DNA of 64,000 bases from Pseudomonadota bacterium (GTDB lineage Bacteria; Pseudomonadota; Alphaproteobacteria; Rhizobiales; Beijerinckiaceae), in assembly GCA_023386155.1 (NCBI GenBank), contig JAEWKH010000066.1, positions 94,719 through 158,718 of the forward strand. Reading direction: 5' to 3'. The translations under genes and the position numbers were made by a program. The notes under the pieces are model-generated. The model worked only from the letters and a program-made list of their open reading frames with translations. It was not told the DNA's origin and searched no databases. Of this stretch, positions 1-23,493 are shown in pieces; position 1 is the stretch's first letter; each line of letters begins with the position of its first letter.

Positions 1-790
1 CGTACAGCCAGCGTTCGATCCCAAATGCGACGCAACCAGTAAAGGCAGGAGTGTGATCGGAAGTGGTGATGTTGCAGCGCTCACCGAAGAAATTTCGATG
101 GAAGTTCAGCGACGCGATCGCTAGGCCCGACCCATAGACGAACTCCTCCTTCGTTGGGAACAACTTCGCCATGAGCGCGCGCGCACCAGTAACCTTGTCA
201 GCCTCACCAGTCGGCTGGAAGAATGGATCGGCTGCGGTCTCGATTTTCAAGTCAAGTTGAAGCGCGGCTGAGAAATCCAGGACTTTCTTCTTGAAAGACG
301 CGAGGTGCTCGACAACTGCGGAGTGCTCTCCGATGCAAACGATCTCACGCATAGAAAATCCTCGCATACGTGAGAGGCCAGAATACTCGCGCTCGTTCCG
401 AAAACAGGTCGCAACGGTGGTGACATACTTTGCCGCATCGAGTCTGGAGTTCTTGAGATGCAGATAAATCGAATAGCAAGCTGCCGAAGGTAACATATAT
501 TCGGAATCGACCAGGTGTGTCGAAGGAACCGAACAGGTACATCCGGGCGCTTGATACTCAGAGAGGTGGTTGGGATTGATCTGACTCGTAACTGTCGCGA
601 GATGAGGGAAATTCTGAAAGTAGTCGAAGCGGCCGAGATCGCTGATGCGTAAGAGAGGGGGGAAGAGCATATGAGCCGCGCCAATCTCTGAAGCCCACCG
701 CAAGAAGCGCTCTTCGAGCAGCGTTCGCACTTCAACGAGCTCCGCGCCTAGGGTCGCGAGTCCACCGTCCACGTGAAGTAACTCAGTCAC
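1..790 (-). CDS. amino acid--[carrier protein] ligase-like protein (truncated class II, SerRS-type aminoacyl-tRNA synthetase catalytic core); the 3' end runs off the window
   Basis: Absent from the supplied ORF track because it is edge-truncated. My translation of the reverse strand from GTG at 790 (GGAGGA just upstream) stays open to position 1: VTELLHVDGGLATLG...FPPLLRISDLGRFDYFQNFPHL...AACYSIYLHL...TCFRNEREYSGLSRMRGFSMREIVCIG...FTGCVAFGIERWLY. FRNE fits class II motif 2 and GIERW fits motif 3. Cys/Glu/Cys fall where the Zn ligands of methanogen-type SerRS lie. No tRNA-binding arm is present. Confidence 0.6.
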   Translation of the reverse strand, partial: MTELLHVDGGLATLGAELVEVRTLLEERFLRWASEIGAAHMLFPPLLRISDLGRFDYFQNFPHLATVTSQINPNHLSEYQAPGCTCSVPSTHLVDSEYMLPSAACYSIYLHLKNSRLDAAKYVTTVATCFRNEREYSGLSRMRGFSMREIVCIGEHSAVVEHLASFKKKVLDFSAALQLDLKIETAADPFFQPTGEADKVTGARALMAKLFPTKEEFVYGSGLAIASLNFHRNFFGERCNITTSDHTPAFTGCVAFGIERWLY

Positions 791-832
791 TGGATTCCTC
801 CATCTATGGCTCGAGGGAGCTGGAAAAAACTA

Positions 833-1789
833 TCAGCCCCGCACGACGAGTGGCTCGCTGACTTCACGAAAATTTCGGAAGCGAAGCACCAATTCCTGAT
901 ACGAGTTGATTCCTTCAGCGCCGAATCGTGCGCGGAACATTAGATCATACATTTCGAGTTCGTCGGAACTGAGCTGGTGGGCATGGTCATCCAGGTTTAC
1001 CTTGCTAACGCCCTCGCCGTCGCCGAAGGTCAACGGGTCAAAGCGGTTGCCCACTGCCATCGCCTCCTTCGAAGTCTTTTGCGCGATTCCGGCTACGACA
1101 GTTTCATCGACCTCGATTCCAAGCCAGCGAGCTAAGCTTCGAACCGTTGCCTCCTTCTTCTTCGTCAAGTCGTCGTACGTCAGAAAGAAGATGTTGTCGT
1201 TGCCCGCCTTCATCTGCGAATAAACGAACCAAAGCTCATCGATATGGAACCGAGCCGATTTCTTAAGTGCTCGGCGCTTAAACACGTTCCAATCGAGGTG
1301 GCGTTGATACCATCGCTGCCAGCGCACCCGTGGCACGAACTCCCGCGCCCAAGCAAACCATGATCGAAAATAGCCCGGGAAATCACGCGACATCCAGATT
1401 TGGCGCGTAATCCCGGCCTCTCGTAACGACTGCTCGATGTCAAGAAGCCGCCCGTTGACCTTGTAGAGCTGATATTCTCCGTCCTGCCGTGCATTGAAAT
1501 TCTGCGCGATCTGCCTCGCCGGAAACGAGAGCATCGGTACAAGGTCGAAATCGTTGCGGAAGTTTTGAATCGTGTTGCGCGTGTTAACCAGCGCGGTCAC
1601 ATAGCAGAGGAGAGTCGAGCCGCACTTCGGCAGCGTCACAATCGCGACGCATTCCTTATCGAGCTTCGACACACGAAGCGTGCGGAGATGTAGCTTCGCT
1701 ATACCCGAGTCCCATCGCGGTGTCGCAAGCATGTCAATTCTGCTCTGCGGGAGGGCCCGCGTCATTAGTGTAGAAAAGATTTTACTCAC
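833..1789 (-). CDS. PAPS-dependent sulfotransferase family protein
   Basis: 318-aa ORF. VTLPKCGSTLL matches the 5'-phosphosulfate-binding loop (PKxG-S/T-T) of sulfotransferases. FFLTYDDL and the overall length fit the family. It lies about 40 nt upstream of, and co-directional with, the ligase-like gene. Confidence 0.7.
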   Translation of the reverse strand: MSKIFSTLMTRALPQSRIDMLATPRWDSGIAKLHLRTLRVSKLDKECVAIVTLPKCGSTLLCYVTALVNTRNTIQNFRNDFDLVPMLSFPARQIAQNFNARQDGEYQLYKVNGRLLDIEQSLREAGITRQIWMSRDFPGYFRSWFAWAREFVPRVRWQRWYQRHLDWNVFKRRALKKSARFHIDELWFVYSQMKAGNDNIFFLTYDDLTKKKEATVRSLARWLGIEVDETVVAGIAQKTSKEAMAVGNRFDPLTFGDGEGVSKVNLDDHAHQLSSDELEMYDLMFRARFGAEGINSYQELVLRFRNFREVSEPLVVRG

Positions 1790-2043
1790 GGGTCACTCAC
1801 CAAGAAACACTATATTCTATCATTAGCCTAGGGACATTTTCTTAGATCGTCAACGATGCATGATTTCGGCGGGCAGCTTACGAAAATCCCCTTCGCCCTA
1901 GGCGCTTTGCTGGAGAGTGTTCGATTTTCCCGAGTAGCTTGACCGGTGATGATGCTGGCTTGGGGCAAGCTACAGAAGCTATTGGCATGGTGATCTAGGC
2001 AATGTTATAACCAAAGTTAGCTTTGAGACCTCAGGCTATTGGC

Positions 2044-2886
2044 ATGGAAAACCACGACGGATCCACAATTGGGCGGGCAGCGCTGCTTATGGCGTTGTCT
2101 GAAACGTGCGTTCGCGCAGGCGAAGCTATTATGGGCATCTACCGGGCGCAGTTTGCCGTAACCAGCAAAAGTGATGCCTCGCCCGTGACGGAGGCGGATA
2201 CAGCGGCTGAGGCGTTAATTTTGACGGCGCTCGCCACGTTCGCGCCGAATGTGCCTATAGTGGCTGAAGAGGAAGTCGCGTCCGGGCGCATACCCAAGAC
2301 AGCCGGTAGTTTCTTCTTGGTTGATCCGCTCGATGGCACCAAAGAATTCATCGAGCAGCGCGGCGATTTTACTGTTAATATAGCATTGATCGAGAACTAT
2401 ATTCCCAGCTTAGGTGTGGTTTATGCGCCAGCTGAGCGACGGCTATTCGTAGGTGACGTGGCGATCGGGAAAGCATGGAGCGCAAGGGTTGCGGCAGATG
2501 GCACGATTGGCGTTCAAGCTCCACTCCGCATCCGCGCAGCACCGAAAGGCGGGATCACGGCGGTTGCCTCACGCTCCCATAGTTCAGGCCCAACCTACGA
2601 GTATTTGGCGCAATATCCCGTACTGGAATGCGTTTCGCGAGGTTCCAGCCTAAAAATATGCATGGTGGCAGCCGGAGAGGCCGATTTATATCCAAGACTT
2701 ACCCCTACGTGCGAATGGGATATCGCCGCTGGCGATGCTGTGCTGCGTGCGGCGGGCGGAACCCTCAAGGCGTTAGACGGAGAGGATATGCTCTATGGCA
2801 AGGAGAAGTTTTTCAATCCTGGCTTCGTCGCCGTCGGTGATGTGGCAATGCTGCCGATCACATCCTTCGTGAAAGCCTGCCCCTGA
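2044..2886 (+). CDS. cysQ: 3'(2'),5'-bisphosphate nucleotidase (PAP phosphatase), inositol monophosphatase family
   Basis: FFLVDPLDGTKEFI and WDIAAGDAVLRAAGG are the IMPase/CysQ metal-binding and C-terminal motifs. ATG at 2044 is preferred over the TTG at 2023 used by the ORF track. Confidence 0.85.
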   Translation: MENHDGSTIGRAALLMALSETCVRAGEAIMGIYRAQFAVTSKSDASPVTEADTAAEALILTALATFAPNVPIVAEEEVASGRIPKTAGSFFLVDPLDGTKEFIEQRGDFTVNIALIENYIPSLGVVYAPAERRLFVGDVAIGKAWSARVAADGTIGVQAPLRIRAAPKGGITAVASRSHSSGPTYEYLAQYPVLECVSRGSSLKICMVAAGEADLYPRLTPTCEWDIAAGDAVLRAAGGTLKALDGEDMLYGKEKFFNPGFVAVGDVAMLPITSFVKACP

Positions 2887-3478
2887 GGGGAGGCAAAAAG
2901 ACTCATTTCAAAAAAAGCAATTTGCCTTTGGCGTATGAGGGCAACATAAAGACAGCGCCCACCGATTTCCAGCGAGCTGCGGCAACAGATTGGACCGCAA
3001 TGGCACCAACATCAGGGAAGCCGCCTCAGCTATCGATTCTTGCAAATATGTCTCGGCTGTGTACGTACCGCTCGGTACAGTTCGAGACGGCTTTGTCAAT
3101 GGAAGCCCTTAGCTCCCGGCGCAGCAAAATGCGCGTAAACGATCTGACGTCCTGCATTGAATGATATAAAGTATTATTGCAAAACAACGACAATTATCCT
3201 ACGTTGCCACTGAGTTTAGGCGGGTAACATACGGCTTGTCCCAGCTTCTGGCAGAACCCCGGGCAGGTACGGCAATATGTTCAAGTTGGGAATTGTGTTG
3301 TCTCGGTGCCAAGAGGGCTGCTCCTAAAATTCGGGCAATGAAATAACGTTATATTAGGCGCTGCCCAGCGGTTCTATCAGTACGATCCCCTTACCCAACT
3401 GATTGGCTTAGGTGACCGACACATGGTGAGAACTGGAGCCACGAATTGGATCGTAGTCGGTGAATAGGAGGCGCTGAG

Positions 3479-4933
3479 GTGGGCATCAACCTAGGCATAT
3501 GGGCTCTTCATAGTGGCGAAGAGAACGCAGCGGCCATTGAAGACCCGAGTAAATGTTGCTCATACAAGGAGGCGCGCGCAAGAGCAGCGCGCATCGCGGC
3601 AGGCCTTTATGCTGCTGGAGTGCGTCCGGGAGACAGTGTTGCTCTCCTTGTCTCGAATTCAGTGCGGGCCGCTTTGAGTGTCCTCGGAATATGGACTGCA
3701 GGAGCTTCGATCATATCCTTCCGGACCGATCTTACGAGCTCCGAGATCGCGCTCTGCCTTGATCTTTGGCCAGCCAAATGGGTCCTGACGTCGACACACT
3801 ATGCTGATCGTTTCGCAAAATCACCAAGTCATATTTGCGTGCTCGACATCGACGAAGTGGAAATGGGAGGAGACAGCTTTATTAGCCCGACGGTGCCTCT
3901 CGATACACCTGCGATAGTGCTTTTTACCTCAGGAAGCACCGGAGAGCCGAAAGCTGTGATCCATTCAGCAAGATCTATGGCATCACAAACCGTTCGAAGA
4001 GAGCCCTATAGAGCGGCGACCATCGCATCCATTGGTTCTGCATTCAACAACGTTCTTCAAACGCTGCAAGCAGGTGGCACCCATATTTTTCTCGAGGAAT
4101 CTGTAACAGGAAGCCAGCTTGCGAAGGCGCTGCTGCATCATCGCGCGGAGCAGGCGCGGCTGTCTACCAATGCTGTTATGTCGCTTGTTGAGGCCGGTCA
4201 GCGATTGGGACCATCCGTGCGTCGACTCATTTGTGGTGGGGACTTCGTGTCGGCCAAATTTCAGCAGCGTGCAAGCGATGCATTGGGGCTTCATGTCATA
4301 CAGGCCTATGGGGCTACCGAGGCCTTCGCCATGACCAGAGGAAATGAAGAGACTCCGCCAGGATCAATCGGTCGGACGCTTCCACAAGTCGAGCTGCAGC
4401 TGCGGTCAGAAGAGGATGGCTCTGTGGTCTCCGGAGTAGGGCAGGGCCTAGCATGGGTTCGCTCACCTAAACTGTTCATGGGGTACGGCAATCGTGGAGC
4501 GATAGAGAGGCCGTTCGACCAAGATGGCTGGTTCAAGACGGGCGACGTGCTCCGCCGGGATAATGATCAAAACTATTACTTCTTGTCGCGTGTGACGAAT
4601 TATTTGAAAATTAAAAACGAGAAAGTGAGCTCTCACGAGATCGAAGACGTTCTTCGTCGGGACGCCGTTGTCAGGAATGCTTATGCGACCTGCCTGAAGC
4701 TTTCAGGCGAACGAGATACAGTCGTGGCCGTTTTGGAATTGGATCAGTTTGACGATCATCTTGCTGCGCGATTGAGATCGCTCATGGATACAAACCTATC
4801 CACATTCAAGCATCCAGAGATTGTCTACACGACGAGTTCATTTCCCTATTCCGCAGCGGGAAAAATTGATGCACGAGCACTGGAAGTCCTGATTCAGTCG
4901 GGGCGTCTGCGTCAGATCATTCCTGCCTCCTGA
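3479..4933 (+). CDS. stand-alone adenylate-forming enzyme (AMP-dependent ligase / acyl-CoA or acyl-carrier ligase family)
   Basis: LFTSGSTGEPKAV (A3), QAYGATEA (A5), GWFKTGDV (A7) and PYSAAGKIDARAL (A10). GTG start preceded by AGGAGG. Confidence 0.85.
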   Translation: MGINLGIWALHSGEENAAAIEDPSKCCSYKEARARAARIAAGLYAAGVRPGDSVALLVSNSVRAALSVLGIWTAGASIISFRTDLTSSEIALCLDLWPAKWVLTSTHYADRFAKSPSHICVLDIDEVEMGGDSFISPTVPLDTPAIVLFTSGSTGEPKAVIHSARSMASQTVRREPYRAATIASIGSAFNNVLQTLQAGGTHIFLEESVTGSQLAKALLHHRAEQARLSTNAVMSLVEAGQRLGPSVRRLICGGDFVSAKFQQRASDALGLHVIQAYGATEAFAMTRGNEETPPGSIGRTLPQVELQLRSEEDGSVVSGVGQGLAWVRSPKLFMGYGNRGAIERPFDQDGWFKTGDVLRRDNDQNYYFLSRVTNYLKIKNEKVSSHEIEDVLRRDAVVRNAYATCLKLSGERDTVVAVLELDQFDDHLAARLRSLMDTNLSTFKHPEIVYTTSSFPYSAAGKIDARALEVLIQSGRLRQIIPAS

Positions 4934-4974
4934 TATGTATTCCGATTCCTTCCAACGCTGAGTATGTCCGAGTC

Positions 4975-6648
4975 ATGACTGCAGAATTGATGGTACGTAA
5001 CGAGGCTCTCGATCATATCCGAGCTTGGCTCCGGAAGAGACATCCCAAGCTTCGCGAAGCCGATCTTGATCTTGACCGAGATCTCATCGAATACAGAGTG
5101 ATCGACTCGCTATCCTTCATGGAATTCATCTTATACATTGAGGAGCTTCGCGGTCGTGAAATTGATCCTACAGCGGTTACAGCCGCTAGCGTTCGTACCC
5201 TGCGGTCCATCTGTGACACGTTCTTTGCCGAGCTTCCGGCCGTGGACCTAAGAGGCTCTCGCAGCCTCGAAGATCCCGCTGCGATGCCGCCCGAAGATGG
5301 GCAGGCGGACCAGCCGCTCACCCACTCGCAAGCGAACTGGTATTATTACGACCTTGATCATCCTGAGACGACTTCTTGGATGATGCCTACCCTTCTGCGA
5401 ATCCGGGGAAAACTTGATACTTCGCGACTAACGAAAGCGATCGAAGAACTCGTATGTCGGCACGACGGACTGAGGATACGGCTCAAGATCGACGGTGGCG
5501 CTCCGCGACAATCCCTCGTGCCTCCTTTCGTTCCAGATCTACCCGTGACAGTCCTCGAGAACCAACTTGATAAAGACCTGTGGACTGCGGCGCTCGAGGT
5601 AGTCTCCCAAGAATGCGCTCGACCTGCTGATCCAGAAGCTGGGCCTCCTTGGCGGGCACGACTTATACGCCTAGACATGGATGACCATCTTTTGGTCATC
5701 ACACTGGCTCACATCTTGGTCGATTTAGAAGCGTTGATTGCAATCCCGAACCAGGTAGCATTGTTCTATGCAGCGCTTGGAGATGAGTCTTCGCTCGCAT
5801 CGGTGCCCTATCCGCCAATGCAGTACTCCCAATTCGCGGCATGGCATCGTGCTTGGCTCACGAGTCCCGAAGGACTGTCTCAGATCCAACATCGTCGCGA
5901 GCAGCTCGCAGGAGCCGACGAGTTTAACCTCGGAGCACCATTCAGAACGCGCAATACAAAAGAAGAGGACCGCCGTCTTATTCCTTTGCCTGTTGCAAAC
6001 CAGGCAGAGAGTCTTGCGGCCGAGGAGCGAGCAACATCTGTTGTGGTGGGCCTCTCAGCCTATGTGGCGATGCTCAATCGCACCTTTGGCCACCGTGACA
6101 TGACCGTCTCTCTAAATCTCGGCTTTCGAACTAAAGAAGCCGGCAGAGCAACAACGGGGGTCATCGGCTGCTTTACGAACCAACAGCCGTTGCGAATTTC
6201 GGTTGATCCGAAGCTGTCATTTCGGGAGCTTGTACGCGAAGTCCGACCGATCGTCCTCGACGCATTCAAACATCGCTATGTCCCCACGCGCCTCATTCTG
6301 GATGCGCAAAATCCCCTTGATAGCCCCCTCGCAGCTGTGACCTTCAACTGGATGAATCTTACGGACTATGACGATGAAGCCGCAGAGGTTCAGAGTAGTG
6401 AAGTCGCAATGAAGCCCATCATCTTGGGGCTCGACGAACCGACACGGTCGCTTTATGGCGGAATCGCAAAGCACACGGCGCTAACCATTCGAGCGGTTCG
6501 GACTAAACGGGGTGTCGAGACGTTCTTGGCGACCACAGTCGAGGTGCTCGGGGCTGGTGCGGCAGCGCGCTTGGGCGGTGACTACGAGCGCTGGTTCTAT
6601 GCGACTACAACGAGTCCTGATCGGGCACTAGAAGAGCTTGAGGTCTGA
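4975..6648 (+). CDS. NRPS-like didomain protein: N-terminal carrier (PCP/ACP) domain plus condensation domain
   Basis: The N-terminus has a phosphopantetheine-site-like VIDSLSFMEFILYIEEL. Downstream are LTHSQANWYYY (C1-like), LVCRHDGLRIRL (C2-like) and ITLAHILVDLEA (HHxxxD-type C3 with His and Asp retained). Confidence 0.7.
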   Translation: MTAELMVRNEALDHIRAWLRKRHPKLREADLDLDRDLIEYRVIDSLSFMEFILYIEELRGREIDPTAVTAASVRTLRSICDTFFAELPAVDLRGSRSLEDPAAMPPEDGQADQPLTHSQANWYYYDLDHPETTSWMMPTLLRIRGKLDTSRLTKAIEELVCRHDGLRIRLKIDGGAPRQSLVPPFVPDLPVTVLENQLDKDLWTAALEVVSQECARPADPEAGPPWRARLIRLDMDDHLLVITLAHILVDLEALIAIPNQVALFYAALGDESSLASVPYPPMQYSQFAAWHRAWLTSPEGLSQIQHRREQLAGADEFNLGAPFRTRNTKEEDRRLIPLPVANQAESLAAEERATSVVVGLSAYVAMLNRTFGHRDMTVSLNLGFRTKEAGRATTGVIGCFTNQQPLRISVDPKLSFRELVREVRPIVLDAFKHRYVPTRLILDAQNPLDSPLAAVTFNWMNLTDYDDEAAEVQSSEVAMKPIILGLDEPTRSLYGGIAKHTALTIRAVRTKRGVETFLATTVEVLGAGAAARLGGDYERWFYATTTSPDRALEELEV

Positions 6649-6817
6649 GATAGAGAATCTCGACGAGATGCTTAATGATCGGCGCAGGTCCGGCATTTCA
6701 GTGACAGCTGCAACTTATTCAAGGTCGAGTTGTCAAGCGAGGGGACAGTCAAGCTGTCAAGGATTGGGTGAGGTCCTTTCCCACGCTATTGCATCAGCTC
6801 CCAATTGAGCAGTCTGT

Positions 6818-7444
6818 TCATTGCTTCAAGTTTGTACGGATCAGACCTCTGAGGGAGTTCCCGACAAATAGAGTTCCCATCTTGATATCATCAAGGTTGA
6901 TATAGGCGACCTTAGCTTTGCACTGACGAATGAGATCGGCACGTAGAACACCAGCAAGAAGGCCGCAAGAAATGGGTGGGGTGCGGAGCACCCCAGATCC
7001 ATCATCCAGGAATACTGAGGTAATAGTGCCTTCACATATCTCGCCTCTTTCGTTTAGCATTATTACCTCATCTGCCTCCTGCAATGTGTACTCCGCACGT
7101 GCCTGTTCATAAACTGCTCGACGTGTAGTCTTAATGCGCAGCAACCTATCGGCCGACAACAGGCGAGTTGTGGCGATCCTAGCAGTCCAAGTAACGTCAG
7201 GGGACATAGGCATTAGCGAAGCTGTTGTAATGTCGACCTGACCCTTTGCATTGAACGCAACGCGTACGCGGAGGCACTCAGATGCGTTGCGAACGGCTTC
7301 GGAAAGGAGTGAAGAGACCTGCTCTGTACCTGGAAATCCGATGAGCCGCGCTGAGCGTGCAATTCGGGTAAGATGCAGGTTCAACCGAATAAATCCGACA
7401 TTGGGTTCGTAACGGAGTGTTTCGATCAAAGAGAATTCTGACAT
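6818..7444 (-). CDS. short class IV aminotransferase-fold protein, aminodeoxychorismate lyase (PabC)-like
   Basis: 208 aa. LIETLRYEPNVGFIRLNLHLTRIARSARLIGFP resembles the N-terminus of short PabC-type proteins. A fused PabAB gene lies nearby. Confidence 0.6.
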   Translation of the reverse strand: MSEFSLIETLRYEPNVGFIRLNLHLTRIARSARLIGFPGTEQVSSLLSEAVRNASECLRVRVAFNAKGQVDITTASLMPMSPDVTWTARIATTRLLSADRLLRIKTTRRAVYEQARAEYTLQEADEVIMLNERGEICEGTITSVFLDDGSGVLRTPPISCGLLAGVLRADLIRQCKAKVAYINLDDIKMGTLFVGNSLRGLIRTNLKQ

Positions 7445-8035
7445 TTGAGATGCTCACCTATAATCTTATCGTAATGCCAATGAGGTGATCCTGGCACAAT
7501 CTGAGTGCGTCTAGTACCCGACTGCTACCTGTCGCCTAGGGCGGAGACGAGAATTCCCAGTCGCAACCTCCTTGACGTGGTCCACCTGATCATCCTTTTT
7601 GACAGCAGGAGATGATCCGCGATTTCCTCATATCTCTAGAATGGGCTGCCTCTACGACTGGCATGATCTACGTTTTCTGCACGTTGACCTTGTGAAGTTG
7701 TGAGGCGATCGATGCCGCTTCGCTTTTTCCTCGCCCATTTGATGTCCTTCTTAGGCTCGCAGGTCCTTCCTCGATAAGTATCACTTTTAGGATGCCTGTA
7801 CCCTTAAGGAAGATTCCTGCGCATGCTGATAGTTCTGTTATAACCGAGCATTGACAATTGCCAACGACAACGTCAGCATAAAGTCCTAAGGGATTGCCGA
7901 CATGTTTCTAAGGTCGGCAACAGATCGAGTTCATGGATTCATGAATAACCTCGTTAGTGCCGATCACTTACGCAAATATAGGCAAGCGTATAACCCAGAA
8001 GCTTGCCAGTATCCCCTCTGGCATCCGGACCTTGC

Positions 8036-8962
8036 ATGCTGCCAGTAGTATCAATTACCAATCTCTCAAAGACATATGAGGCGGGTTCTCAAGCCCTCAA
8101 GCGCGTCAACCTCGATATTCGCCGCGGCGAGATTTTGGCCTTACTTGGTCCCAATGGGGCGGGAAAGACCACTCTCATTAGCATCGTGTGCGGTATCGTT
8201 AAACCTTCCGAAGGAACGGTGGCGGTTGGCGGTCACGACATTGTCAAGCAGTCCCGTGCGGCACGTACGAAAATCGGCCTCGTACCCCAGGAGCTCGCCA
8301 CCGACGCATTTGAGAAAGTGTGGAATGCCGTGGCGTTCTCGCGTCGCTTGTTTGGTATGCGTGCTGACCCCGACTACTTGGCCAAGGTGCTCAAAGACCT
8401 TTCACTGTGGGACAAGCGAAACAGCCGCATCATGACGCTCTCGGGAGGTATGAAGCGACGATTGATGATTGCCAAGGCACTGGCACACGAACCGGAAATC
8501 TTATTTCTCGACGAGCCAACCGCTGGTGTGGATGTGGAGTTGCGCAAGGACATGTGGGAAATCCTGCGTACGCTGCAGGCAAAGGGTGTCACCATCATTC
8601 TCACCACACACTATATTGAAGAGGCCGAGAACCTAGCCGATCGAGTCTGCGTCATCCATCGCGGTGAGATCCTGTTGGTGGAGGAGAAAGCCGAGCTCAT
8701 GTCAAAGTTGGGCAAGAAACAGATGAAAATGCATCTGCTCAACAAGCTCGATACAATCCCTAGAGAACTCAACGGCTATCCATTGGCGTTGAGCGCAGAT
8801 GGTCATGAGCTCGTCTTCACATATGATAGCCAAAGCGAACAGGCCGGAATCACGGCGCTATTTGATGATTTGAAAGCCGTTGGGATCGCGTTTGCCGACT
8901 TGAGCACAAATAAAAGCTCGCTTGAGGAAATTTTTGTTGATTTGGTAAGGCAGCAATCGTGA
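8036..8962 (+). CDS. ABC transporter ATP-binding protein (ABC-2 exporter type)
   Basis: Walker [10 protein letters not shown], signature LSGGMKRR, Walker [16 protein letters not shown] at 8036 is preferred over the upstream TTG. Confidence 0.9.
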
Positions 8963-9726
8963 GCTTCAACTATCGGGCCGTCTACGCTATTTTCATGTTT
9001 GAGCTGTCCCGTTCGCGGCGTACTCTGCTGCAGAGGCTCGTCTCGCCAGTGATTTCGACTGCGCTTTACATTGTTGTGTTCGGCGCAGCGATCGGCTCTC
9101 GGATCAGCGATATTGATGGCGTGGAGTATGGCGCTTTTATCGTGCCAGGACTGGTCATGCTGATACTGCTGACCCAGAGTGTCGCCCACGCCTCGTTCGG
9201 AATATATTTTCCGCGATTCACCGGAACCATCTACGAAATCCTGTCTGCACCGGTGTCCTACGTTGAGCTTGTCATCGGCTATGTAGGATTTGCTGCCAGC
9301 AAGGCGATTTTCCTTGGAATCCTGATCCTCGCCACCGCTGCCCTCTTCGTGCCGCTACGCATCGCCCATCCAATATGGATGGTATCGTTTTTGGTGCTGA
9401 CCGCAATCGCATTCAGCTTGCTTGGTTTCATCATTGGGCTCTGGGCGGACGGATTTGAGAAGCTCCAGGTTATCCCTATGCTGGTGATAACACCGCTTAC
9501 GTTCCTGGGAGGAGCATTCTACTCTACGAGCGTACTGCCGCCGGTTTGGCAAACGATGACGCGGCTCAATCCGATCTTCTACCTAATCAGCGGCTTGCGG
9601 TGGAGCTTTTTCGAGATTGCTGACGTCGGCGTCGGCGTGAGCCTAGCAATGACGCTACTGTTTCTCCTTATATGCCTTGTGGTGGTATGGTGGATATTCA
9701 AGACCGGGTATCGACTGCGGGCGTGA
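8959..9726 (+). CDS. ABC-2 type transporter permease
   Basis: 255-aa polytopic membrane protein. Its GTG start overlaps the ATPase stop by 4 nt (GTGA). Six hydrophobic segments, as is typical of the YadH/NodJ-like ABC-2 family. Confidence 0.8.
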
Positions 9727-9952
9727 GGGCAGCATTGCCCGTAGTCCTCCGAGCGCCCTTCACACGTGATGACGGCGCCCAGTATCGTGCAAGGACCGAT
9801 ATGACATCTAATAGATGTCTGATCTTAGGCAGAGGTGATGATGTCCGTTGCCTTGAGCCTATAGGTAAACTTGGCTGGTTCTGACGGTTTAAGACAAGCG
9901 GCGCCATCGTGTTCAATATTGAAATCACGCTCATACAACTAGGTCACCGACA

Positions 9953-12040
9953 ATGCGTACATTGATCATAGATAACTACGACTCGTTCACGCACAATCTC
10001 GTCCACCTAGTTTCTGTCGTGAACAAAGATGTCCCGATTGTCGTGCGTAATGACGAACTCGACTGGAGGGCTCTTGAGGAACTTAACTTTGATAATGCAA
10101 TCATATCTCCGGGCCCTGGCCACCCAGCTCGTGAAGCTGACTTCGGCATTTGTGCGCGATTTCTGAAAGAGACGTCAAAGCCGACACTTGGCGTGTGTCT
10201 TGGCCATCAAGGGATTGCAACGGTCATGGGCGGGCTAGTCGAGCGCGCACCGCAACCGGTTCATGGCAAGGCCGCTTCGGTTCGCCATAATGGAATTGGC
10301 ATATTAAAGGGGGTTCCGTCGCCGTTCTTAGCAGCCCGTTACCACTCATTAATAGTCAAACGCCCTTTGCCGTCAGAGCTTCTAGAGTTTGCCTGGACCG
10401 CCGACGATCTCGTAATGGGATTGATGCACCGAACGCGGCCACTCTGGGGCCTTCAGTTTCACCCCGAGTCAATTATATCGGAACATGGAGATCGAATTCT
10501 TCGCAATTTCCGCGATATGACCACTGAGCTTAGCCCCCGACCGGTATCGGGATACTCGAAGATACCAGATGGAGGAGGCCATACGAAGTCTCGGGTCCGG
10601 CTGGTCTGGAGAGAAATTCCGGCCCCTCCATCGGTGGCGTCTGCTTATGCGCAACTGTTCGCCAAGAATCTTTGCTCCTTTTGGCTGGATAGCAGCCTGG
10701 CAGAGCGCGGACGATCCCGCTGGTCGTATTTTGGAGCCGCATCGGATGGCGGAACATCGCTAGATACTTACGACAGTGGATCTAAGAAGACCGTACATTA
10801 TCGGGGCTCGATACGTCATGAGGGCGGCAAAAGCATCCTGGATTATCTTTCTCCGCAGCTACGCTGTGATATCGAGAATCCCCCACCATGCCCATTTGTC
10901 GGCGGCTGGGTCGGGTATCTTGGTTATGAACTTGGTCGAGAATTCGGTGGCGCTACACGTGGTCAGAGCTCCTTGCCTGACGTAGTACTGCAGCTCGTTG
11001 ATCGTTTCATCGCATTCGATCATGAAGAGGAGCGAATGTACGCTATTTGCGTGGAAGACGTGCCAGAGAGTGGCTCTGCGCAACAATGGCTCTCATCGAT
11101 AGAGGTAGCCCTGCAGGAGATCGGTGACCAGTTAGACCAGCCACAGCCGTTAGGTTTGAAGACGCCTATTCGATTTCGGCTCGATCGTGATCGCGAAACC
11201 TATATCGCGGATGTCAAGCAATGTTTGGATTGGATCAACGCCGGAGAAACATATCAAGTTTGTCTGACAAACGAGATCCGCACGGACACGGTTATCGATT
11301 CTCTTGCGCTTTATCGTGTGTTGAGATCAGTCAATCCTGCGCCTTTCGGAGCGTATTTCTGCTGGCCAGGAGGTGCCGTACTAAGCGCATCTCCAGAGCG
11401 TTTTCTAACAGTTGACAATAAGGGCTTCGTGGAAGCGAAGCCTATCAAGGGGACAATTAGGCGCGATGCCGATTCGTTTGTTGATGCGAAATTAGCGGAG
11501 GAACTCTCTAGCAGTGACAAGGATCGGTCCGAGAATATCATGATTGTCGATTTGCTTCGCAATGATCTGTCTCGAGTGTGCAAGCCTGGTTCAGTAGTTG
11601 TTCCAAAGCTATGCGATGTCGAATCCTATGCTACGGTGCATCAGTTGGTAAGCACGGTGCGCGGCGAGCTCCAGCCAGACATGACGATCATCGATCTTCT
11701 TCGTGCGTCCTTCCCTGGTGGCTCAATGACCGGCGCTCCAAAAATTCGTACACTCGAGCTCATCGACCAGCTTGAGCAACGCGCACGCGGTGTTTATTCC
11801 GGCGCCATGGGGTGGTTCGGATTTGATGGGGCTGCGGATCTTAGTATTGTGATCCGGACTATCGTACAGAGTGGACAAGAACTCTCTTTCGGTGTCGGCG
11901 GTGGTGTAGTCGCTCAATCAACGCCAGATGGAGAATTCGAGGAGATGTTGTTGAAGGCGAAGGCTTCTATTCGCGCCATTGTTATAGCTGCTTCAGGTTC
12001 TTTCAACGAAAACCTATTCGAAATCGAGGGTATCGAGTGA
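9953..12040 (+). CDS. pabAB: fused aminodeoxychorismate synthase (glutamine amidotransferase PabA domain plus PabB chorismate-binding domain)
   Basis: N-terminal GATase triad region LGVCLGHQGIA ... LQFHPES. C-terminal chorismate-utilising motifs SASPERFL, GAPKIRTLELIDQLE and GGGVVAQSTPDGEFEE. Confidence 0.9.
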   Translation: MRTLIIDNYDSFTHNLVHLVSVVNKDVPIVVRNDELDWRALEELNFDNAIISPGPGHPAREADFGICARFLKETSKPTLGVCLGHQGIATVMGGLVERAPQPVHGKAASVRHNGIGILKGVPSPFLAARYHSLIVKRPLPSELLEFAWTADDLVMGLMHRTRPLWGLQFHPESIISEHGDRILRNFRDMTTELSPRPVSGYSKIPDGGGHTKSRVRLVWREIPAPPSVASAYAQLFAKNLCSFWLDSSLAERGRSRWSYFGAASDGGTSLDTYDSGSKKTVHYRGSIRHEGGKSILDYLSPQLRCDIENPPPCPFVGGWVGYLGYELGREFGGATRGQSSLPDVVLQLVDRFIAFDHEEERMYAICVEDVPESGSAQQWLSSIEVALQEIGDQLDQPQPLGLKTPIRFRLDRDRETYIADVKQCLDWINAGETYQVCLTNEIRTDTVIDSLALYRVLRSVNPAPFGAYFCWPGGAVLSASPERFLTVDNKGFVEAKPIKGTIRRDADSFVDAKLAEELSSSDKDRSENIMIVDLLRNDLSRVCKPGSVVVPKLCDVESYATVHQLVSTVRGELQPDMTIIDLLRASFPGGSMTGAPKIRTLELIDQLEQRARGVYSGAMGWFGFDGAADLSIVIRTIVQSGQELSFGVGGGVVAQSTPDGEFEEMLLKAKASIRAIVIAASGSFNENLFEIEGIE

Positions 12041-12093
12041 TGTTCACTCGACGGCACCGTCAAATTGACGGCGAAGGATTCGTCAGCCCCGGC

Positions 12094-12375
12094 TCAGTAA
12101 ATCGTATCCCGAGTCCATAGCGGATGATCAGTGGCGCCGTACATTGCAGCCTTCCTGGCGGCCGCATAGCTCGCCAGGTTGTTTATGTTCATCATATATG
12201 GGGCTGTACCCTGGTTCTTGAGTAGTTTACGGGACAGACGCTCGGCGGCTTTCATGTTACGTCGATTCTGGGTCAGGAGATTTAGCACGTGGCTGATGAC
12301 TCCATGGAAGCGGCGACGATCGTAGAGAGCGTAATGAATGTTCTCCACTTACTATGATTTCGTCTGGTCACCCTT
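12094..12375 (-). pseudogene. IS6-family transposase remnant (internal fragment, truncated at both ends)
   Basis: The reverse-strand translation PDEIIVSGENIHYALYDRRRFHGVISHVLNLLTQNRRNMKAAERLSRKLLKNQGTAPYMMNINNLASYAAARKA parallels IS26-type DETYVKVNG-W-YLYRAVD--G--VDF-LS-RRN-KAA--FL-K-L...TDK-ASY. A stop lies immediately upstream, and similarity is lost before the C-terminal catalytic region. Confidence 0.45.
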
Positions 12376-12731
12376 CTGCTAATTTGACGACGCCATTGAA
12401 GAAGATCCAATGGATGCACTGCTAGTGGCCGCCAGCACAATCGACGGCATATCCAGCGCTGGCCTCGTGCGGCTGGATTGTTCAAAGCTGGCCATCCATC
12501 CCGTTTTAAATCAGGGTGCAGTCAGGGAAGAGAACAACTAGCGCGGTAAAAACAAGTCAAGCCTACCGTTTTAGCTGTGGGAATATGGTCCGATACAACC
12601 TTGCATATTTTGGGGAAGCCGTTAGCCTTCGTAAAGTGAATTGACTGACGGAGGTAGCTTATGACTGACGGGAAGTTCGAAGAAAAGGTCTTCGGAAATC
12701 CGCAGGCCATAGCTGAATTAGAAGGTGCCCG

Positions 12732-13910
12732 ATGAAGGGTGCTTACTTCCTCAAAGACATTGTTCGGGGTTCGCCTGAGTACGAATGCCATCTGTTCAGT
12801 AAGCAGGCTTCTGCTCAAGCAAGATCTTTCCTGTCGAGGCTTCCCGGTTACAAGCCGACGCCTTTGCTCGATCTTTCATCCGAATCCAGAAAGTTCGGAG
12901 TTGGTCGACTTTATTACAAAGATGAGGCGCAGCGTTTTGAGGTGGGGAGCTTCAAAGCATTGGGCGGCGCGTATGGCGTGTATAGGGCGATAGAGCGACT
13001 AGCGAATGCTGAAGGTTTCGAAAACCTGCATGTTGACGATATTCTTGATGGCCGAGTTCGGCACCTGACAAAATCCCTCACGGTGGTATGCGCGACTGAC
13101 GGAAACTATGGCCGCGCCGTCGCTTGGGCAGCAAAACTGTTGGGGTGCCGGTCGCGCGTGTACGTTAATGCAGCAACGAGCACTAATAGAGCGGACGCCA
13201 TCCTTCAGTACGGAGCAGATGTTGTTCGAGTGTCTGGTGTCTACGAAGACGCATTGGAGCAGGCGGAATACGACGCGCGATTGCATGGCTGGACGATGGT
13301 CTCTGACACAGCGTACGACGGATGCAACGATTCTCCTGAGGACGTTATGGCGGGCTATGCCACGCTAGTTCACGAGATCGGGCAACAGTGGGACGCTGAT
13401 GTGCCGCCAACCCATGTCTTTCTTCAGGTTGGGGTCGGAGGTCTTGCCGCGTCTGTCATAGCACAGTGTTTGAGAATTTGGACTGCGCGGCCGCCGACTT
13501 TCATTGTTGTTGAGCCTGTTGAAGCCGACTGCGCTTTTCAAAGTGGAATGGCTGGCGTTAGCACCTCGGCAGCAGGCAATCTAAAAACCCTTTCCGTTGG
13601 CTTGGCTTGTGGTCGCTTATCCACGCAAGCCTGGCCTGTTTTGAGAGACAACGTATCTGCTTATATGCTGATTGACGATAGTGATGTGACTGCTGCCATG
13701 CGGTTGCTATCACGCTGTGAGTCCGGCGGCGTGGTTGCGGGCGAATCAGGTTGTGCCGGTTTCGCAGCGTTCCGCCGCGCTTGTTTGTATGAGCCGTTGA
13801 AGCAGGCGTTGGGGTTAGGGGAGAATAGCCACGTGTTAACGATCGGCACGGAAGGGGCCACAGACGCTGAAATATATAGATCTATAGTTTTTGGCACCGC
13901 CCGGTCTTAA
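12732..13910 (+). CDS. PLP-dependent enzyme, diaminopropionate ammonia-lyase-like (tryptophan synthase beta superfamily)
   Basis: RFEVGSFKALGGAYGV (PLP-lysine motif as in DpaL/YgeX) and the glycine-rich loop QVGVGGLAASV. 392 aa. Confidence 0.7.
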   Translation: MKGAYFLKDIVRGSPEYECHLFSKQASAQARSFLSRLPGYKPTPLLDLSSESRKFGVGRLYYKDEAQRFEVGSFKALGGAYGVYRAIERLANAEGFENLHVDDILDGRVRHLTKSLTVVCATDGNYGRAVAWAAKLLGCRSRVYVNAATSTNRADAILQYGADVVRVSGVYEDALEQAEYDARLHGWTMVSDTAYDGCNDSPEDVMAGYATLVHEIGQQWDADVPPTHVFLQVGVGGLAASVIAQCLRIWTARPPTFIVVEPVEADCAFQSGMAGVSTSAAGNLKTLSVGLACGRLSTQAWPVLRDNVSAYMLIDDSDVTAAMRLLSRCESGGVVAGESGCAGFAAFRRACLYEPLKQALGLGENSHVLTIGTEGATDAEIYRSIVFGTARS

Positions 13911-13922
13911 TAGAGGAATTTC

Positions 13923-15281
13923 ATGTTGCCGATGTCGTTGAGCTGGGAGGATACAGTTAAATTACTGAGTAGGTATTCTCCAGAGGTTGCAAACGATATA
14001 TGTCAGAATGCAGAAAGGCCCTTATATTCATACGCGAGTGAGATATTTACTCCTCCCGACCCGCTTAATCTGTTTAACGATGCGGAGGTAAAACTCCGCA
14101 CAGCTCTTAGGCAGTATTTGGAGCAGTCGCCTTCATGCGGAATTCATGAGGATGAATTTGAAGCTATAATTGATGAATTTTTCTTACAGAGAGTGGTGCT
14201 GACCGGACCGCATCTTCAATTGTTGTTTGACCCTGAACCATTTTACGGACTCATCCTCTCCGCCCTCGGTGCAAGCAAGTCTGATAGACGCTACGTATTT
14301 TGGCATGCGAATACTACTGGTCGATTAAATTTAGCAAACCGAATAGGACCAGGGTGGCTCACTCTAGAAGATGCTAAGGTCAATTTATTTGATCTCTCAG
14401 TCAGGCAGATGAACCAGTTAACCCCGTTTGGGGCGACAGGAAGGTATAAGTTTCGTCCGAAAGTGGATGGCGTAATTCCTGTGAATAGATACAAAGGTGT
14501 TTTAGAAGATATCTCGAACATAAGCCCTCAAAGTATTCGCGGGCTATTTCATGCCGCAAACGATAAAGTATGGAATGTTTGCAACAAAGATCTTCAAAAA
14601 ATTGTCGTACTCGACGACAAACTGAATTCACTTCTAATAAGCTTGTATGTTCAGGATAGAACAAGTGTTCTAACTGGTATGCTCTTCGAGAAAGGCATAC
14701 TGGATCTTCAGTTGAGATTGTTTCAAGAGGCAATGCTTGCTGATACAACTAAAATGTTGCCATTCGGAACAGATTTTTTCTGGCATAACCGAGGTGATCG
14801 CTTTATCCCCATGAGGCTCAATTCGGAGCAAAGCCATCTCGTAAGTGCGTGTGGGCAAAGCGCATGTGCTATAGCGTGGAACTCTAACGATATTGTCACT
14901 GCGCTGCAGGAAAACATCATTGTTCCTAATGTTTATTTGATGATGCTCACGTTTTCTATATTGCCTTCGGTGAGGGCGAACGGTGGACCGAGGCAAATTA
15001 TTTATATGCCTGTTATTCACCGCATAGCTCGTCAGGTATTGAGGAGTCTTTTAGGGAAAGACATACCTTTAGACACTCAAAGGCTGCACGGCTTGGGATC
15101 TGACGTTATTTACCCGGTTCCGGGTCTTATCCCAGATGTGGTGGCCTCACGGGATTATAACGGCATAACTTTGTACGTTGAAAATTTGAAACGAGATTCA
15201 TCTAGTCTAGTCGATCATGCAAAACATCTCCGCACGATAAGAGAATATAGTGCTTGGCACTATATGGCGCGCAATCAATAA
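13923..15281 (+). CDS. hypothetical protein (452 aa, AT-rich, no motif recognised)
   Basis: Long uninterrupted ORF. GAGGA lies 6 nt upstream of the ATG, which is 12 nt after the PLP-enzyme stop. No TM segments or catalytic signatures recognised. Confidence 0.5.
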   Translation: MLPMSLSWEDTVKLLSRYSPEVANDICQNAERPLYSYASEIFTPPDPLNLFNDAEVKLRTALRQYLEQSPSCGIHEDEFEAIIDEFFLQRVVLTGPHLQLLFDPEPFYGLILSALGASKSDRRYVFWHANTTGRLNLANRIGPGWLTLEDAKVNLFDLSVRQMNQLTPFGATGRYKFRPKVDGVIPVNRYKGVLEDISNISPQSIRGLFHAANDKVWNVCNKDLQKIVVLDDKLNSLLISLYVQDRTSVLTGMLFEKGILDLQLRLFQEAMLADTTKMLPFGTDFFWHNRGDRFIPMRLNSEQSHLVSACGQSACAIAWNSNDIVTALQENIIVPNVYLMMLTFSILPSVRANGGPRQIIYMPVIHRIARQVLRSLLGKDIPLDTQRLHGLGSDVIYPVPGLIPDVVASRDYNGITLYVENLKRDSSSLVDHAKHLRTIREYSAWHYMARNQ

Positions 15282-15566
15282 ACAAATACTGCGGTCGAAC
15301 GGGGAGCTGCATCCGAGCATCCTTTCGTTGGAAGCTGAGAAAGCGCAGAAAGAACCATGCATTTTTCCTCGGCATGCAGGAAGCGCATTGTCTTTCGGAT
15401 ATGCTGACAAAATACAAATGGCTACATGTGCCCTGTTTGTGGTGCTAACTTGGCTTGGGGCCTGCACAAACGTGAGTGTGTGGCGGAGAGCAGGTTATCC
15501 GCATAGCGAGCTCTAAGTAATGCCGCTGCAAACAAACCCGGCACCAGCTGATTATAAGAGGCGCTC

Positions 15567-16046
15567 TTAGATGGCTCTGTTCGTTGATGAGGGCAGAAGC
15601 CCCGCCTGAGAACTCGGCCAGAAGAGAATGCACCCGGTGAACCATCTGATGAAGGTAATGCCTCCTAAGAGAAGCACCATGATCCCGCCGAGTTTGAGAG
15701 TCTGATCTCCGGTTGTGAGTAGGAGGAGGCCAAAGAACAGAGGTCCGAAAGTCCAGAACATGCACGTGAGCCATGTATTCAGGATGAGGCTGTAATCGGT
15801 GGCGATACCTCCGTCATGCTCCAGGGCGTAGATGAAAAGCCGGCCTTTGCAGTGCAGCTTGATCTTTCGATCGTCCTGCTCGATCAAACGTTCCAATTCC
15901 GCGACGACATTAGTGAAAGCAATGATGTTGGCCAGATTGGTGATCTGACCATTGTTATGCCTGATACGGATATAGGAATACCGCATTCCGCCTAATGCTT
16001 CGACGGAGGCGCCATAGCTTTCCAGCGTTCCCTCAATTGTGCGCAT
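15567..16046 (-). CDS. hypothetical membrane protein (soluble N-terminal half, two or three C-terminal TM segments)
   Basis: 159-aa ORF, 36 nt downstream of the preceding minus-strand ORF. Hydrophobic stretches WLTCMFWTFGPLFFGLLLL and GGIMVLLLGGITFIRWF. Confidence 0.4.
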   Translation of the reverse strand: MRTIEGTLESYGASVEALGGMRYSYIRIRHNNGQITNLANIIAFTNVVAELERLIEQDDRKIKLHCKGRLFIYALEHDGGIATDYSLILNTWLTCMFWTFGPLFFGLLLLTTGDQTLKLGGIMVLLLGGITFIRWFTGCILFWPSSQAGLLPSSTNRAI

Positions 16047-23172: not shown

Positions 23173-23493
23173 ATGGTTGCATTATTCGGAGAACGGATCC
23201 GGGAGTTGAGAAAGAAAAAGGGCATGACCCTTGATCAACTCGCCGTCGCGACCGATTCCAGCAAAAGCTACATCTGGGAACTGGAAAACAAGGACCCGCC
23301 ACGTCCTTCGGCGGACAAGATTGCCAGGATCGCGACCGCGCTTGATGTCACCGGGGATTACCTGATGGGTACTGCTGACGTGGACCTGCAATCGGCCGAA
23401 GATGAGGCCTTCTTCCGAAAGTATAGTCAAATGACGCCGGAGGCCCGTGCTAGGCTCCGGAAGCTCGCAAAGGCACTCGACGAGGATGATTGA
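23173..23493 (+). CDS. XRE-family HTH regulator (CapH-like position)
   Basis: FGERIRELRKKKGMTLDQLAVATDSSKSYIWELENKDPPRPSADKIARIATALDV is a canonical XRE HTH. Its stop overlaps the start of the ImmA/IrrE gene. Confidence 0.85.
   Translation: MVALFGERIRELRKKKGMTLDQLAVATDSSKSYIWELENKDPPRPSADKIARIATALDVTGDYLMGTADVDLQSAEDEAFFRKYSQMTPEARARLRKLAKALDEDD

Follow-up and report, generated by a model that had tools for sequence, protein, structure and literature searches.

What does an aminoacyl-tRNA synthetase (aaRS)-like amino acid:carrier-protein ligase contribute to a biosynthetic pathway? The question is raised by a 64,000-nucleotide stretch of DNA from a Pseudomonadota bacterium of the Beijerinckiaceae (GenBank assembly GCA_023386155.1, contig JAEWKH010000066.1, positions 94,719 to 158,718), hereafter called the window. 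At its left edge a gene for such a ligase lies close to genes for a carrier-condensation protein, an adenylating enzyme, p-aminobenzoate (pABA) synthesis, sulfation and export. Amino acid:[carrier protein] ligases have reportedly been known since 2010, the described examples being Bll0957 and Bll6282 of Bradyrhizobium and Atu2573 of Agrobacterium, which are said to have been reported by Mocibob et al. in 2010 and 2013. Their role was stated to be unknown in a 2022 review (PMC9437257).

A first-pass annotation of the window had read the neighbourhood as making a small sulfated aminoacyl/aminobenzoyl amide, assembled on a carrier and exported. All the genes that it named were found where it had placed them, with significant matches among Pfam and NCBIfam profiles. 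Furthermore, the carrier-condensation protein was located on a 230-kb metagenome scaffold (ENA ERZ28603343, scaffold_10), on which window position 1 corresponds to position 54471 and the cluster can be followed to the left. Altogether, the results point to a widespread cassette of di-iron oxygenase, carrier and ligase, set here within a larger predicted pathway.

The aaRS-like ligase

The ligase gene occupies 790..1 on the minus strand, with a GTG start at 790, and the window holds the first 263 of its 286 codons. The coordinates assigned to this edge-truncated gene were thus correct, with the precision that it runs on the minus strand and lacks just its last 23 codons; a plus-strand reading of 1-790 was rejected, as it contains stops in all three frames. 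The full-length protein (P0001, 286 aa) was retrieved as a database entry 100% identical to the part encoded in the window. Its N-terminus, where any tRNA-binding arm of a seryl-tRNA synthetase (SerRS) would be sited, falls inside the window and the arm is absent, in agreement with what had been claimed from the truncated gene.

A class II aaRS core is recognized by Pfam tRNA-synt_2b (31.7 bits, cut-off 29.3), and the predicted Cys/Glu/Cys triad corresponds to C105, E149 and C253, which are invariant in an alignment of 29 homologues of 272-300 aa that match end to end with a mean column identity of 59%. These residues align with identical residues of Bll0957, and we take them, following Mocibob 2010, to be zinc ligands. 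The best match among solved structures is Bll0957 itself (3mey, E 3e-22), which bears out the suggested likeness to SerRS-derived ligases, whereas the methanogen-type (type-2) SerRS 3w3s is matched at E 1.4e-5. Against the NCBIfam model of amino acid--[ACP] ligases (NF005479), the protein scores 124 bits (E 6.5e-36) over 266 of its 286 residues. Because the equivalog cut-off of this model is 357 bits, the ligase is, by profile score, a member of a subfamily distinct from the curated enzymes; the NCBI label of this subfamily is only 'aminoacyl--tRNA ligase-related protein'.

In addition, natural fusions of carrier and ligase exist in the database proteins P0049 (374 aa) and P0115 (386 aa), in which a carrier of ~90 aa lies N-terminal of the ligase. 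At the attachment site of P0049, Thr-Ser replaces the usual Asp-Ser. That the gene could instead encode a genuine tRNA-charging SerRS paralogue is scarcely credible: models of methanogen-type serine--tRNA ligase are weakly matched (51 bits against a cut-off of 611), but the complete protein has no tRNA-binding domain, matches Bll0957 far better than SerRS, and belongs to a family that is fused to or adjoins carrier proteins.

A conserved cassette of oxygenase, carrier and ligase

The distribution of the subfamily was surveyed by running the ligase alignment against a single genome of each GTDB species. At least 562 loci were obtained, and 80 of them were fetched and searched by tblastn with every protein of the window cluster. 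The ligase loci are spread over Acidobacteriota, Elusimicrobiota, Actinomycetota (many of them Streptomyces), Bacillota, Chloroflexota, Melainabacteria and Pseudomonadota. An AurF-family oxygenase was matched in 75 of the 80 loci and a homologue of the N-terminal part of the carrier-condensation protein (residues 1-95) in 74, while a PabAB-like gene was present in four and a sulfotransferase, CysQ or CysD/NC in none of the 80. In about 70 loci, the genes follow one another in the order oxygenase, carrier, ligase, closely packed on one strand. On the strength of this association, an AurF-family di-iron oxygenase, a carrier of ~80 aa and the SerRS-derived ligase are taken to form a conserved and widespread cassette.

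The window's own carrier is encoded by the first part of the carrier-condensation gene (4975..5259, plus strand), with the predicted phosphopantetheine attachment at Ser45 in the motif IDSLSF. This domain aligns with the stand-alone carriers beside the ligase family, the Asp-Ser pair (D44/S45) being invariant, and is 36-62% identical to the carriers adjoining the ligase in the 74 loci. By this alignment, the carrier half of the protein is the cognate carrier of the ligase cassette, fused to a condensation (C) domain.

The genes around the cassette are diverse. Directly downstream of it, genes for phosphopantetheinyl transferase (PPTase) occur in ten cases, along with genes for halogenase-like flavoenzymes, hydrolases, methyltransferases, C domains, and nitronate-monooxygenase-family and MOSC proteins. 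Directly upstream, an AMP-binding or PP-binding gene of the adenylation-peptidyl carrier protein (A-PCP) or nonribosomal peptide synthetase (NRPS) kind is found in 18 of 73 loci. With such neighbours, the cassette resembles a portable building-block module that may feed varied, often NRPS-like pathways, and the nitronate-monooxygenase and MOSC neighbours give a hint of nitro or N-hydroxy intermediates.

Two arrangements illustrate this range. In Streptomyces sulfonofaciens JCM 5069 (locus L089, 6879-17060), the succession is A-PCP, oxygenase, 77-aa carrier, ligase, C-A-PCP-thioesterase (1804 aa) and methyltransferase, an NRPS-embedded layout common to about a dozen Streptomyces loci. In Achromobacter xylosoxidans (locus L091, 8710-13585), an O-methyltransferase, an 84-aa carrier, the oxygenase, a nitronate-monooxygenase-family protein, a 261-aa ligase-like protein and a 4HBT thioesterase are encoded; the sequence cluster of this oxygenase has 119 members, so that this compact variant is common in the species.

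A literature search of limited reach returned no description of the cassette or of the window cluster. The lipothrenin lit operon comprises litK (85 aa, unannotated), litL (311 aa, hypothetical but essential), litM and litN, the last encoding a di-iron N-oxygenase needed for N-hydroxy-threonine (PMC10616846). It was not accepted as a characterized relative of the cassette, since its gene order differs and the comparison was by description alone, and it remains a lead. A Streptomyces lavendulae locus (L070) considered as lit-like was also set aside, as its genes proved to be of other kinds (Inositol_P, APH, ROK and MOSC).

The carrier-condensation protein and its sister clusters

The complete carrier-condensation gene spans 4975..6648 on the plus strand, and its product matches PP-binding at aa 28-81 and Condensation at aa 110-479 (E 6e-45), in keeping with the didomain architecture proposed earlier. 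The NRPS-type C domain, encoded at 5302..6648, has the C domains of Txo1/Txo2 as best matches in the Protein Data Bank (PDB), with the active-site motif aligned. This motif reads AHILVDL in place of HHxxxDG, so that it retains the catalytic second His and the Asp but neither the first His nor the Gly, and it has the form (A/S)HILVDL in all four clusters described below. Just upstream, at 3479..4933 (plus strand), lies the gene for the free-standing adenylating enzyme, which belongs to the ANL superfamily, as the AMP-binding match (E 3e-49) bears witness. In similarity, this enzyme stands between NRPS adenylation domains (LgrA, 1.9e-38) and acyl/benzoate-CoA ligases, and it contains no carrier domain.

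To the left of the window, the genes are, in order, a PobA-like flavin adenine dinucleotide monooxygenase, an AurF-family protein, CysD, a CysN-CysC fusion, a phosphoribosyl pyrophosphate (PRPP) synthetase and a transposase fragment, with the CysN-CysC fusion scoring above the curated cut-offs. A 257-aa open reading frame (ORF) left of CysNC has no family match and is probably spurious. With this extension, the whole region can be described from its gene content as an orphan biosynthetic gene cluster of ~20 kb that reaches ~6 kb left of the window. The first-pass annotation had suggested looking on this side for genes for the synthesis of 3'-phosphoadenosine-5'-phosphosulfate (PAPS), a stand-alone carrier and a PPTase; the PAPS genes are there, in the form of CysD and CysNC, while the other two were not found. 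Among small ORFs of at least 40 aa in 1-16000, no stand-alone carrier with a DSL-type motif was seen.

Three further clusters were compared with that of the window, percentages being identities to the window-cluster proteins. The first, from Logan runs (L085-87), comprises CysD, oxygenase, carrier-condensation protein (82%), sulfotransferase (82%), ligase (81%), class-IV aminotransferase and PabAB. The second (L088/L093, JGI 3300032132) comprises PabAB, class-IV aminotransferase, AMP-ligase (67%), carrier-condensation protein (83%), a MatE exporter, PRPP synthetase, ligase (78%), sulfotransferase (77%), oxygenase (78%) and PobA-like enzyme (83%). The third belongs to the cultured Pseudovibrio denitrificans (L090, GCA_047444875.1, about 344-358 kb on JBLGCU010000002.1), where AMP-ligase, carrier-condensation protein, DUF1611, sulfotransferase, ligase, oxygenase, PobA-like enzyme, ABC, ABC-2, PabAB and CysQ (Inositol_P) are all encoded on one strand.

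Sulfotransferase, ligase, carrier-condensation protein and PabAB are thus present in all three other clusters, with the order rearranged in each, while the adenylating enzyme, the PobA-like hydroxylase, CysQ/CysD and an exporter are each shared with one or two of these clusters. The orthologue of the adenylating enzyme, 67% identical, adjoins the carrier-condensation gene in L088, and the enzyme is also encoded in L090. In the L085 and P0266 contigs, the order is oxygenase, carrier-condensation protein, (sulfotransferase,) ligase, an arrangement that preserves the ancestral cassette layout.

This recurrence bears directly on whether there is a pathway at all. PabAB, CysD, CysNC and CysQ all have housekeeping roles, and the region is a mosaic low-GC island beside a defence island, so that pABA, sulfur-assimilation, transporter and NRPS-like genes might have come together by chance. 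Against such an accident, the gene set recurs with shuffled order in two metagenome clusters and in P. denitrificans; carrier-condensation fusions of this type are extremely rare, numbering six among 5.8 billion proteins; and the ligase and the oxygenase lie beside the carrier-condensation gene in every context read (five of the six proteins). Judged by this co-conservation, chance assembly is largely refuted, and we hold it to be very improbable.

The AurF-family oxygenase and its likely substrate

The oxygenase gene lies about 2.0-2.9 kb left of window position 1 (12829-13731 of locus L004), and its product matches the Pfam AurF family (PF11583) with 83 bits. The metal ligands E107-x-x-H110, E154 and E185-x-x-H188 are invariant in both oxygenase alignments, and the first Glu ligand is either E65, also invariant in both, or E79, invariant in the first alignment alone. 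An extra histidine, H181, four residues before E185, is invariant as well and aligns with the histidine of the AurF motif LHLRDETAH, which we take to be H223 by our own numbering. Such an extra histidine is characteristic of N-oxygenases (PMC13061610). In the AlphaFold2 model (mean confidence, pLDDT, 95), the closest folds found by Foldseek are CmlI and AurF (5hyh/5hyg and 2jcd; TM 0.57-0.69), whereas R2lox and ribonucleotide reductase R2 reach a TM of about 0.4 and desaturases also rank behind CmlI and AurF.

Within its family, the enzyme belongs to a second, mainly proteobacterial clade (45-64% identity). It is 35% identical to its counterpart in the otherwise 81%-similar L085 cluster, and its gene has a GC content of 41-47%, against ~53% in the rest of the cluster. 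The gene gives the impression of a xenologous replacement derived from that proteobacterial clade.

Two substrates can be considered. One is pABA, which the oxygenase would oxidize to p-hydroxylamino- or p-nitrobenzoate, leaving the carrier-bound amino acid unmodified until its condensation with the aryl acid. Several points are in its favour: the AurF family match, the arylamine oxygenases CmlI and AurF as closest folds, the encoded pABA synthesis and, in the window contig, L088 and L090 (three clusters out of four), a neighbouring PobA-like gene that runs in the same direction as the oxygenase gene. However, AurF itself is matched by the profile of the oxygenase family at no better than E 0.02, and the identity to AurF/CmlI is 10-15%; only four of the 75 loci in which the oxygenase accompanies carrier and ligase contain a PabAB-like gene; and the oxygenase directly precedes the carrier gene in the L085 and P0266 contigs. 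Moreover, second-clade oxygenases of A. xylosoxidans and Salinarimonas ramus again adjoin a carrier of ~84 aa and a 261-267-aa ligase-like protein (32-37% identical to P0001), with no pABA genes. Oxidation of pABA is for these reasons considered unlikely, though by no means negligible.

The other candidate substrate is the aminoacyl group bound to the carrier. The genomic association argues for it over an arylamine, and since it is with carrier and ligase, not with pABA genes, that the oxygenase is linked family-wide, the tethered substrate is ranked higher, at about twice the probability of pABA. A precedent exists in PvfB/HamC, AurF homologues that oxidize valine tethered to an NRPS (PMC11659414).

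Aryl acid supply, sulfation and export

The fused PabA-PabB is encoded at 9953..12040 on the plus strand and matches GATase (E 8e-44) and Chorismate_bind, with 363 bits for TIGR00553 (cut-off 328.4), which confirms the PabAB assignment. The PabC-like call fared less well. The short protein encoded at 6818..7444 (minus strand) has the class-IV aminotransferase fold (Aminotran_4, E 4e-31), but scores 32 bits against the pabC model TIGR03461, below its cut-off of 176.85; the model that it does satisfy, NF005731 (313 bits, cut-off 189), is named only 'hypothetical protein'. It is retained here as a candidate PabC-like enzyme.

The PobA-like enzyme scores 563 bits for the subfamily NF006091 (cut-off 351) and 491 bits for the equivalog TIGR02360, below its cut-off of 538.7, and matches the best solved 4-hydroxybenzoate 3-monooxygenase with 453 bits. 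Equivalents of Tyr201, Ser212, Arg214, Tyr222, Pro293, Thr294 and Tyr385 are retained, so that, by alignment, every canonical benzoate-contacting residue is kept. In p-hydroxybenzoate hydroxylase (PHBH), Tyr201 and Tyr385 form a pair, Ser212, Arg214 and Tyr222 bind the carboxylate, and the wild-type enzyme also hydroxylates 4-aminobenzoate. Because the equivalents of these five residues are kept, the PobA-like enzyme should act on a free para-substituted benzoate.

The sulfotransferase gene, of the PAPS type (833..1789, minus strand; Sulfotransfer_1, E 5e-9), lies 42 nt upstream of the ligase gene on the same strand, and a 5'-phosphosulfate-binding-like motif, LPKCGSTLL, is visible in its product. 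Gene callers place its start at 1732 or 1765, and an exact look-up of the 318-aa ORF accordingly gave no match. The protein is accompanied, as previously proposed, by the 3'(2'),5'-bisphosphate nucleotidase CysQ (2023..2886, plus strand; TIGR01331, 264 bits, cut-off 228.8). CysQ removes 3'-phosphoadenosine 5'-phosphate, the by-product of sulfation. The predicted exporter likewise stands: a DrrA/NodI-type ABC transporter ATPase (8003..8962, plus strand; ABC_tran, E 5e-35; TIGR01188, 250 bits) is followed, with a 4-nt overlap, by an ABC-2 permease (8959..9726, plus strand; ABC2_membrane, E 1e-29), and the gene pair also occurs in the Pseudovibrio cluster. PRPP synthetase genes are found at two places in these clusters, namely at the left border of the window cluster (L004 18562-19497), with near-host GC, and inside L088/L093 (12967-13938), between ligase and MatE exporter, the two proteins being 50% identical.

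The position of the sulfotransferase gene, directly upstream of the ligase gene in all four clusters and overlapping it in Pseudovibrio, invites the question of what is sulfated. In the biosynthesis of curacin, in aziridine formation and ahead of the ring closure of sulfazecin, sulfate acts as a leaving group. By analogy, an N-O- or O-sulfate on the carrier-bound intermediate might be a transient leaving group that drives a rearrangement, an elimination, or the formation of an N-N or N-C bond with an aryl amine. The close linkage to the ligase, and the L085 sulfotransferase gene lying inside the oxygenase, carrier-condensation and ligase operon, would suit such a role. Nevertheless, the exporter, CysQ and CysDNC would be just as well explained by a product sulfated in stoichiometric amounts, the PobA-like enzyme would provide an ordinary phenolic acceptor, and transient and retained sulfate are not told apart by sequence. 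A transient sulfate is considered rather improbable.

The proposed pathway

In the preferred reading, cassette, pABA supply, PobA-type hydroxylase, adenylating enzyme, sulfation and export act as one pathway. The ligase would adenylate an amino acid and thioesterify it to the phosphopantetheine of the carrier-condensation protein; characterized relatives of the ligase use Gly or Ala. The di-iron oxygenase would then N-oxygenate the tethered aminoacyl group, as PvfB/HamC do with valine, while PabAB and the PabC-like protein would make pABA and the PobA-like enzyme would hydroxylate the free acid at C3. The fused C domain, which has neither a downstream carrier nor a thioesterase, may release the modified aminoacyl group, most simply through aminolysis by the aryl amine, which would give an amide; alternatively, it may N-acylate the tethered amino acid with a benzoate activated by the adenylating enzyme. 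The latter enzyme would thus activate the benzoate carboxyl either for a further step or as an acyl donor. Finally, the sulfotransferase would sulfate a hydroxyl, be it the ring 3-OH or the N-OH, and the ABC-2 pump would export the product.

That these components work together in the manner described is given an even chance. The sulfated and exported aminoacyl/aminobenzoyl amide of the first-pass annotation draws support from the co-conservation of the genes, but a plain, unmodified amide is probably not the product. From the AurF-family oxygenase and the PobA-like hydroxylase left of the window, the product is probably N-oxygenated and ring-hydroxylated.

Several observations weigh against this pathway. 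The score of the ligase lies below the equivalog cut-off, so its substrate could differ from that of the curated enzymes, and the C domain has lost the first His and the Gly of its active-site motif. No partner carrier is evident for the adenylating enzyme, and a PPTase gene was not found in the cluster, leftward extension included. In addition, the oxygenase may be a replacement with a shifted role, and an arylamine could still be its substrate, given the adjacency of the PobA-like gene and the pABA synthesis. Altogether, the catalytic roles, including the choice of amino acid and the product, are predicted and form a working hypothesis.

A bolder extension of the pathway can also be envisaged. 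The cassette might be the physiological setting of amino acid:[carrier protein] ligases, a portable module for N-oxygenated aminoacyl thioesters present in hundreds of genomes from several phyla, and in the window cluster the co-operonic sulfotransferase might turn the N-hydroxy group into an N-O-sulfate leaving group, allowing attack by the aryl amine to form an N-N bond (hydrazide or hydrazine) or an N-C bond. To our knowledge, a sulfate-driven route of this kind to N-N or N-C bonds has no known counterpart, and we regard the proposal as a long shot.

Genomic setting of the cluster

The cluster has a GC content of ~53%, compared with 62-70% in the window from 36 kb on, where the DNA is host-like: PntB (47810-49207), for example, falls in a 90%-identity sequence cluster with Microvirga arsenatis, and the host is thus probably akin to Microvirga, within the Hyphomicrobiales. 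A defence island lies between the cluster and this host-like DNA. Because of the low GC and the adjoining defence island, the cluster was most likely acquired horizontally, as far as composition and gene content can tell. Cluster and defence genes together make up a low-GC island of ~35 kb (47-60% GC in 2-kb windows) in a host of 62-70% GC. A tRNA scan returned no tRNA that could mark an integration site, and a scan for promoter and terminator consensus sequences gave counts equal to the shuffled background, which is uninformative about operons.

Between the cluster and the defence island lies a stretch of 46.5% GC with three genes. A PLP (pyridoxal phosphate) enzyme of the diaminopropionate-ammonia-lyase family (12732-13910, plus strand; NF006058, 406 bits) is followed by a 452-aa protein (13923-15281, plus strand) with no Pfam or NCBIfam match and a 159-aa membrane-like protein (15567-16046) with no family match. 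Neither of the first two proteins has a tblastn match in either metagenome sister cluster, and no such gene is listed in the Pseudovibrio locus. Lacking counterparts in the sister clusters, these two genes are probably not core members of the cluster.

The defence island includes a Pycsar-type anti-phage system with an E2-like accessory gene (19695-23043, minus strand, identified by PADLOC), made up of the PycC cyclase (21406-23043, minus strand; PADLOC, 598 bits), the Pycsar E2 gene (20603-21409, minus strand; 289 bits) and a cyclic nucleotide monophosphate-binding TIR effector (19695-20606, minus strand; 453 bits). It is flanked by a PD-Lambda-4_B-like gene (18626-19537) on one side and, on the other, by genes for a capP-like M78 peptidase (23490-24389), AbiH (24615-25514), a PIN_12 protein (25588-26631), a Lamassu LmuB-like ATPase (27517-29412) and a DUF676/CTD9 protein of the ABC-3C type (29919-31118). 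Far from the cluster, the sole Rfam match in the scan is the alphaproteobacterial small RNA BjrC1505 (RF02356; 60238-60381, plus strand; 63 bits against a 50-bit gathering score), which is consistent with a Hyphomicrobiales host.

Comparison with known systems

The nearest characterized systems are the Bll0957/Atu2573 ligases, with which the window ligase shares a truncated methanogen-type SerRS core without tRNA-binding domain, the Cys/Glu/Cys triad and a dedicated small carrier encoded alongside. It differs from them in being only ~30% identical and in staying at 124 bits where the NF005479 cut-off is 357; the conserved genomic partner of its subfamily is an AurF-family di-iron oxygenase, and the carrier encoded in the window has a C domain attached to it. 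The described neighbourhood of the Bll0957/Atu2573 type contains an acyl carrier protein (ACP), a Rossmann-fold oxidoreductase, a glycosidase and lipopolysaccharide genes (PMC2922099, note added in proof).

The Pvf/Ham/Mgo pathways resemble the proposed one in a different respect, namely the use of an AurF-homologous di-iron N-oxygenase on an amino acid held as carrier thioester (PMC11659414), a likeness to PvfB/HamC in described activity. The loader, however, is here an aaRS-like ligase acting on a free or C-fused carrier, in place of an adenylation-thiolation-reductase (A-T-R) NRPS. No A-T-R protein is present in the cluster, which therefore has no reductase domain; a haem-oxygenase-like or cupin partner was not seen among the family matches of the cluster proteins; and pABA, sulfation and the C domain are added. 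Likewise, AurF and CmlI of the aureothin and chloramphenicol pathways share with the oxygenase the PF11583 family, the closest folds and the arrangement of two ExxH motifs, two Glu and an extra His, and aureothin has a further parallel in that the window cluster also makes pABA. They differ in genomic context: the present family is conserved alongside genes for a carrier and for an amino acid:[carrier protein] ligase, not alongside arylamine-forming genes.

As for the final condensation, NRPS carrier-condensation release by amide formation with a free amine follows VibH-type logic, and albicidin and cystobactamid are pABA-incorporating NRPS pathways. The window cluster is similar to these in its LCL-like C domain, as judged by the Txo1/Txo2 match, and in the supply of pABA from within the cluster. 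It departs from them in a donor loaded by an aaRS-like enzyme, in having a single module without thioesterase, and in the degenerate motif AHILVDL.

These comparisons place a large ligase subfamily in a defined chemical setting, with a conserved di-iron oxygenase, frequent NRPS neighbours and, in the window, a full candidate pathway. They also make the role of the ligase testable, as the cluster is carried by the cultured P. denitrificans (GCA_047444875.1) and the cassette by many Streptomyces. If the proposed pathway is correct, an aaRS-derived loading route would be added to the known ways to N-oxygenated amino-acid building blocks. Carrier-tethered N-oxygenation feeding NRPS-like condensation is already known; what appears to be new, from the genes assembled here, is the combination of an aaRS-derived loader with pABA and sulfation.

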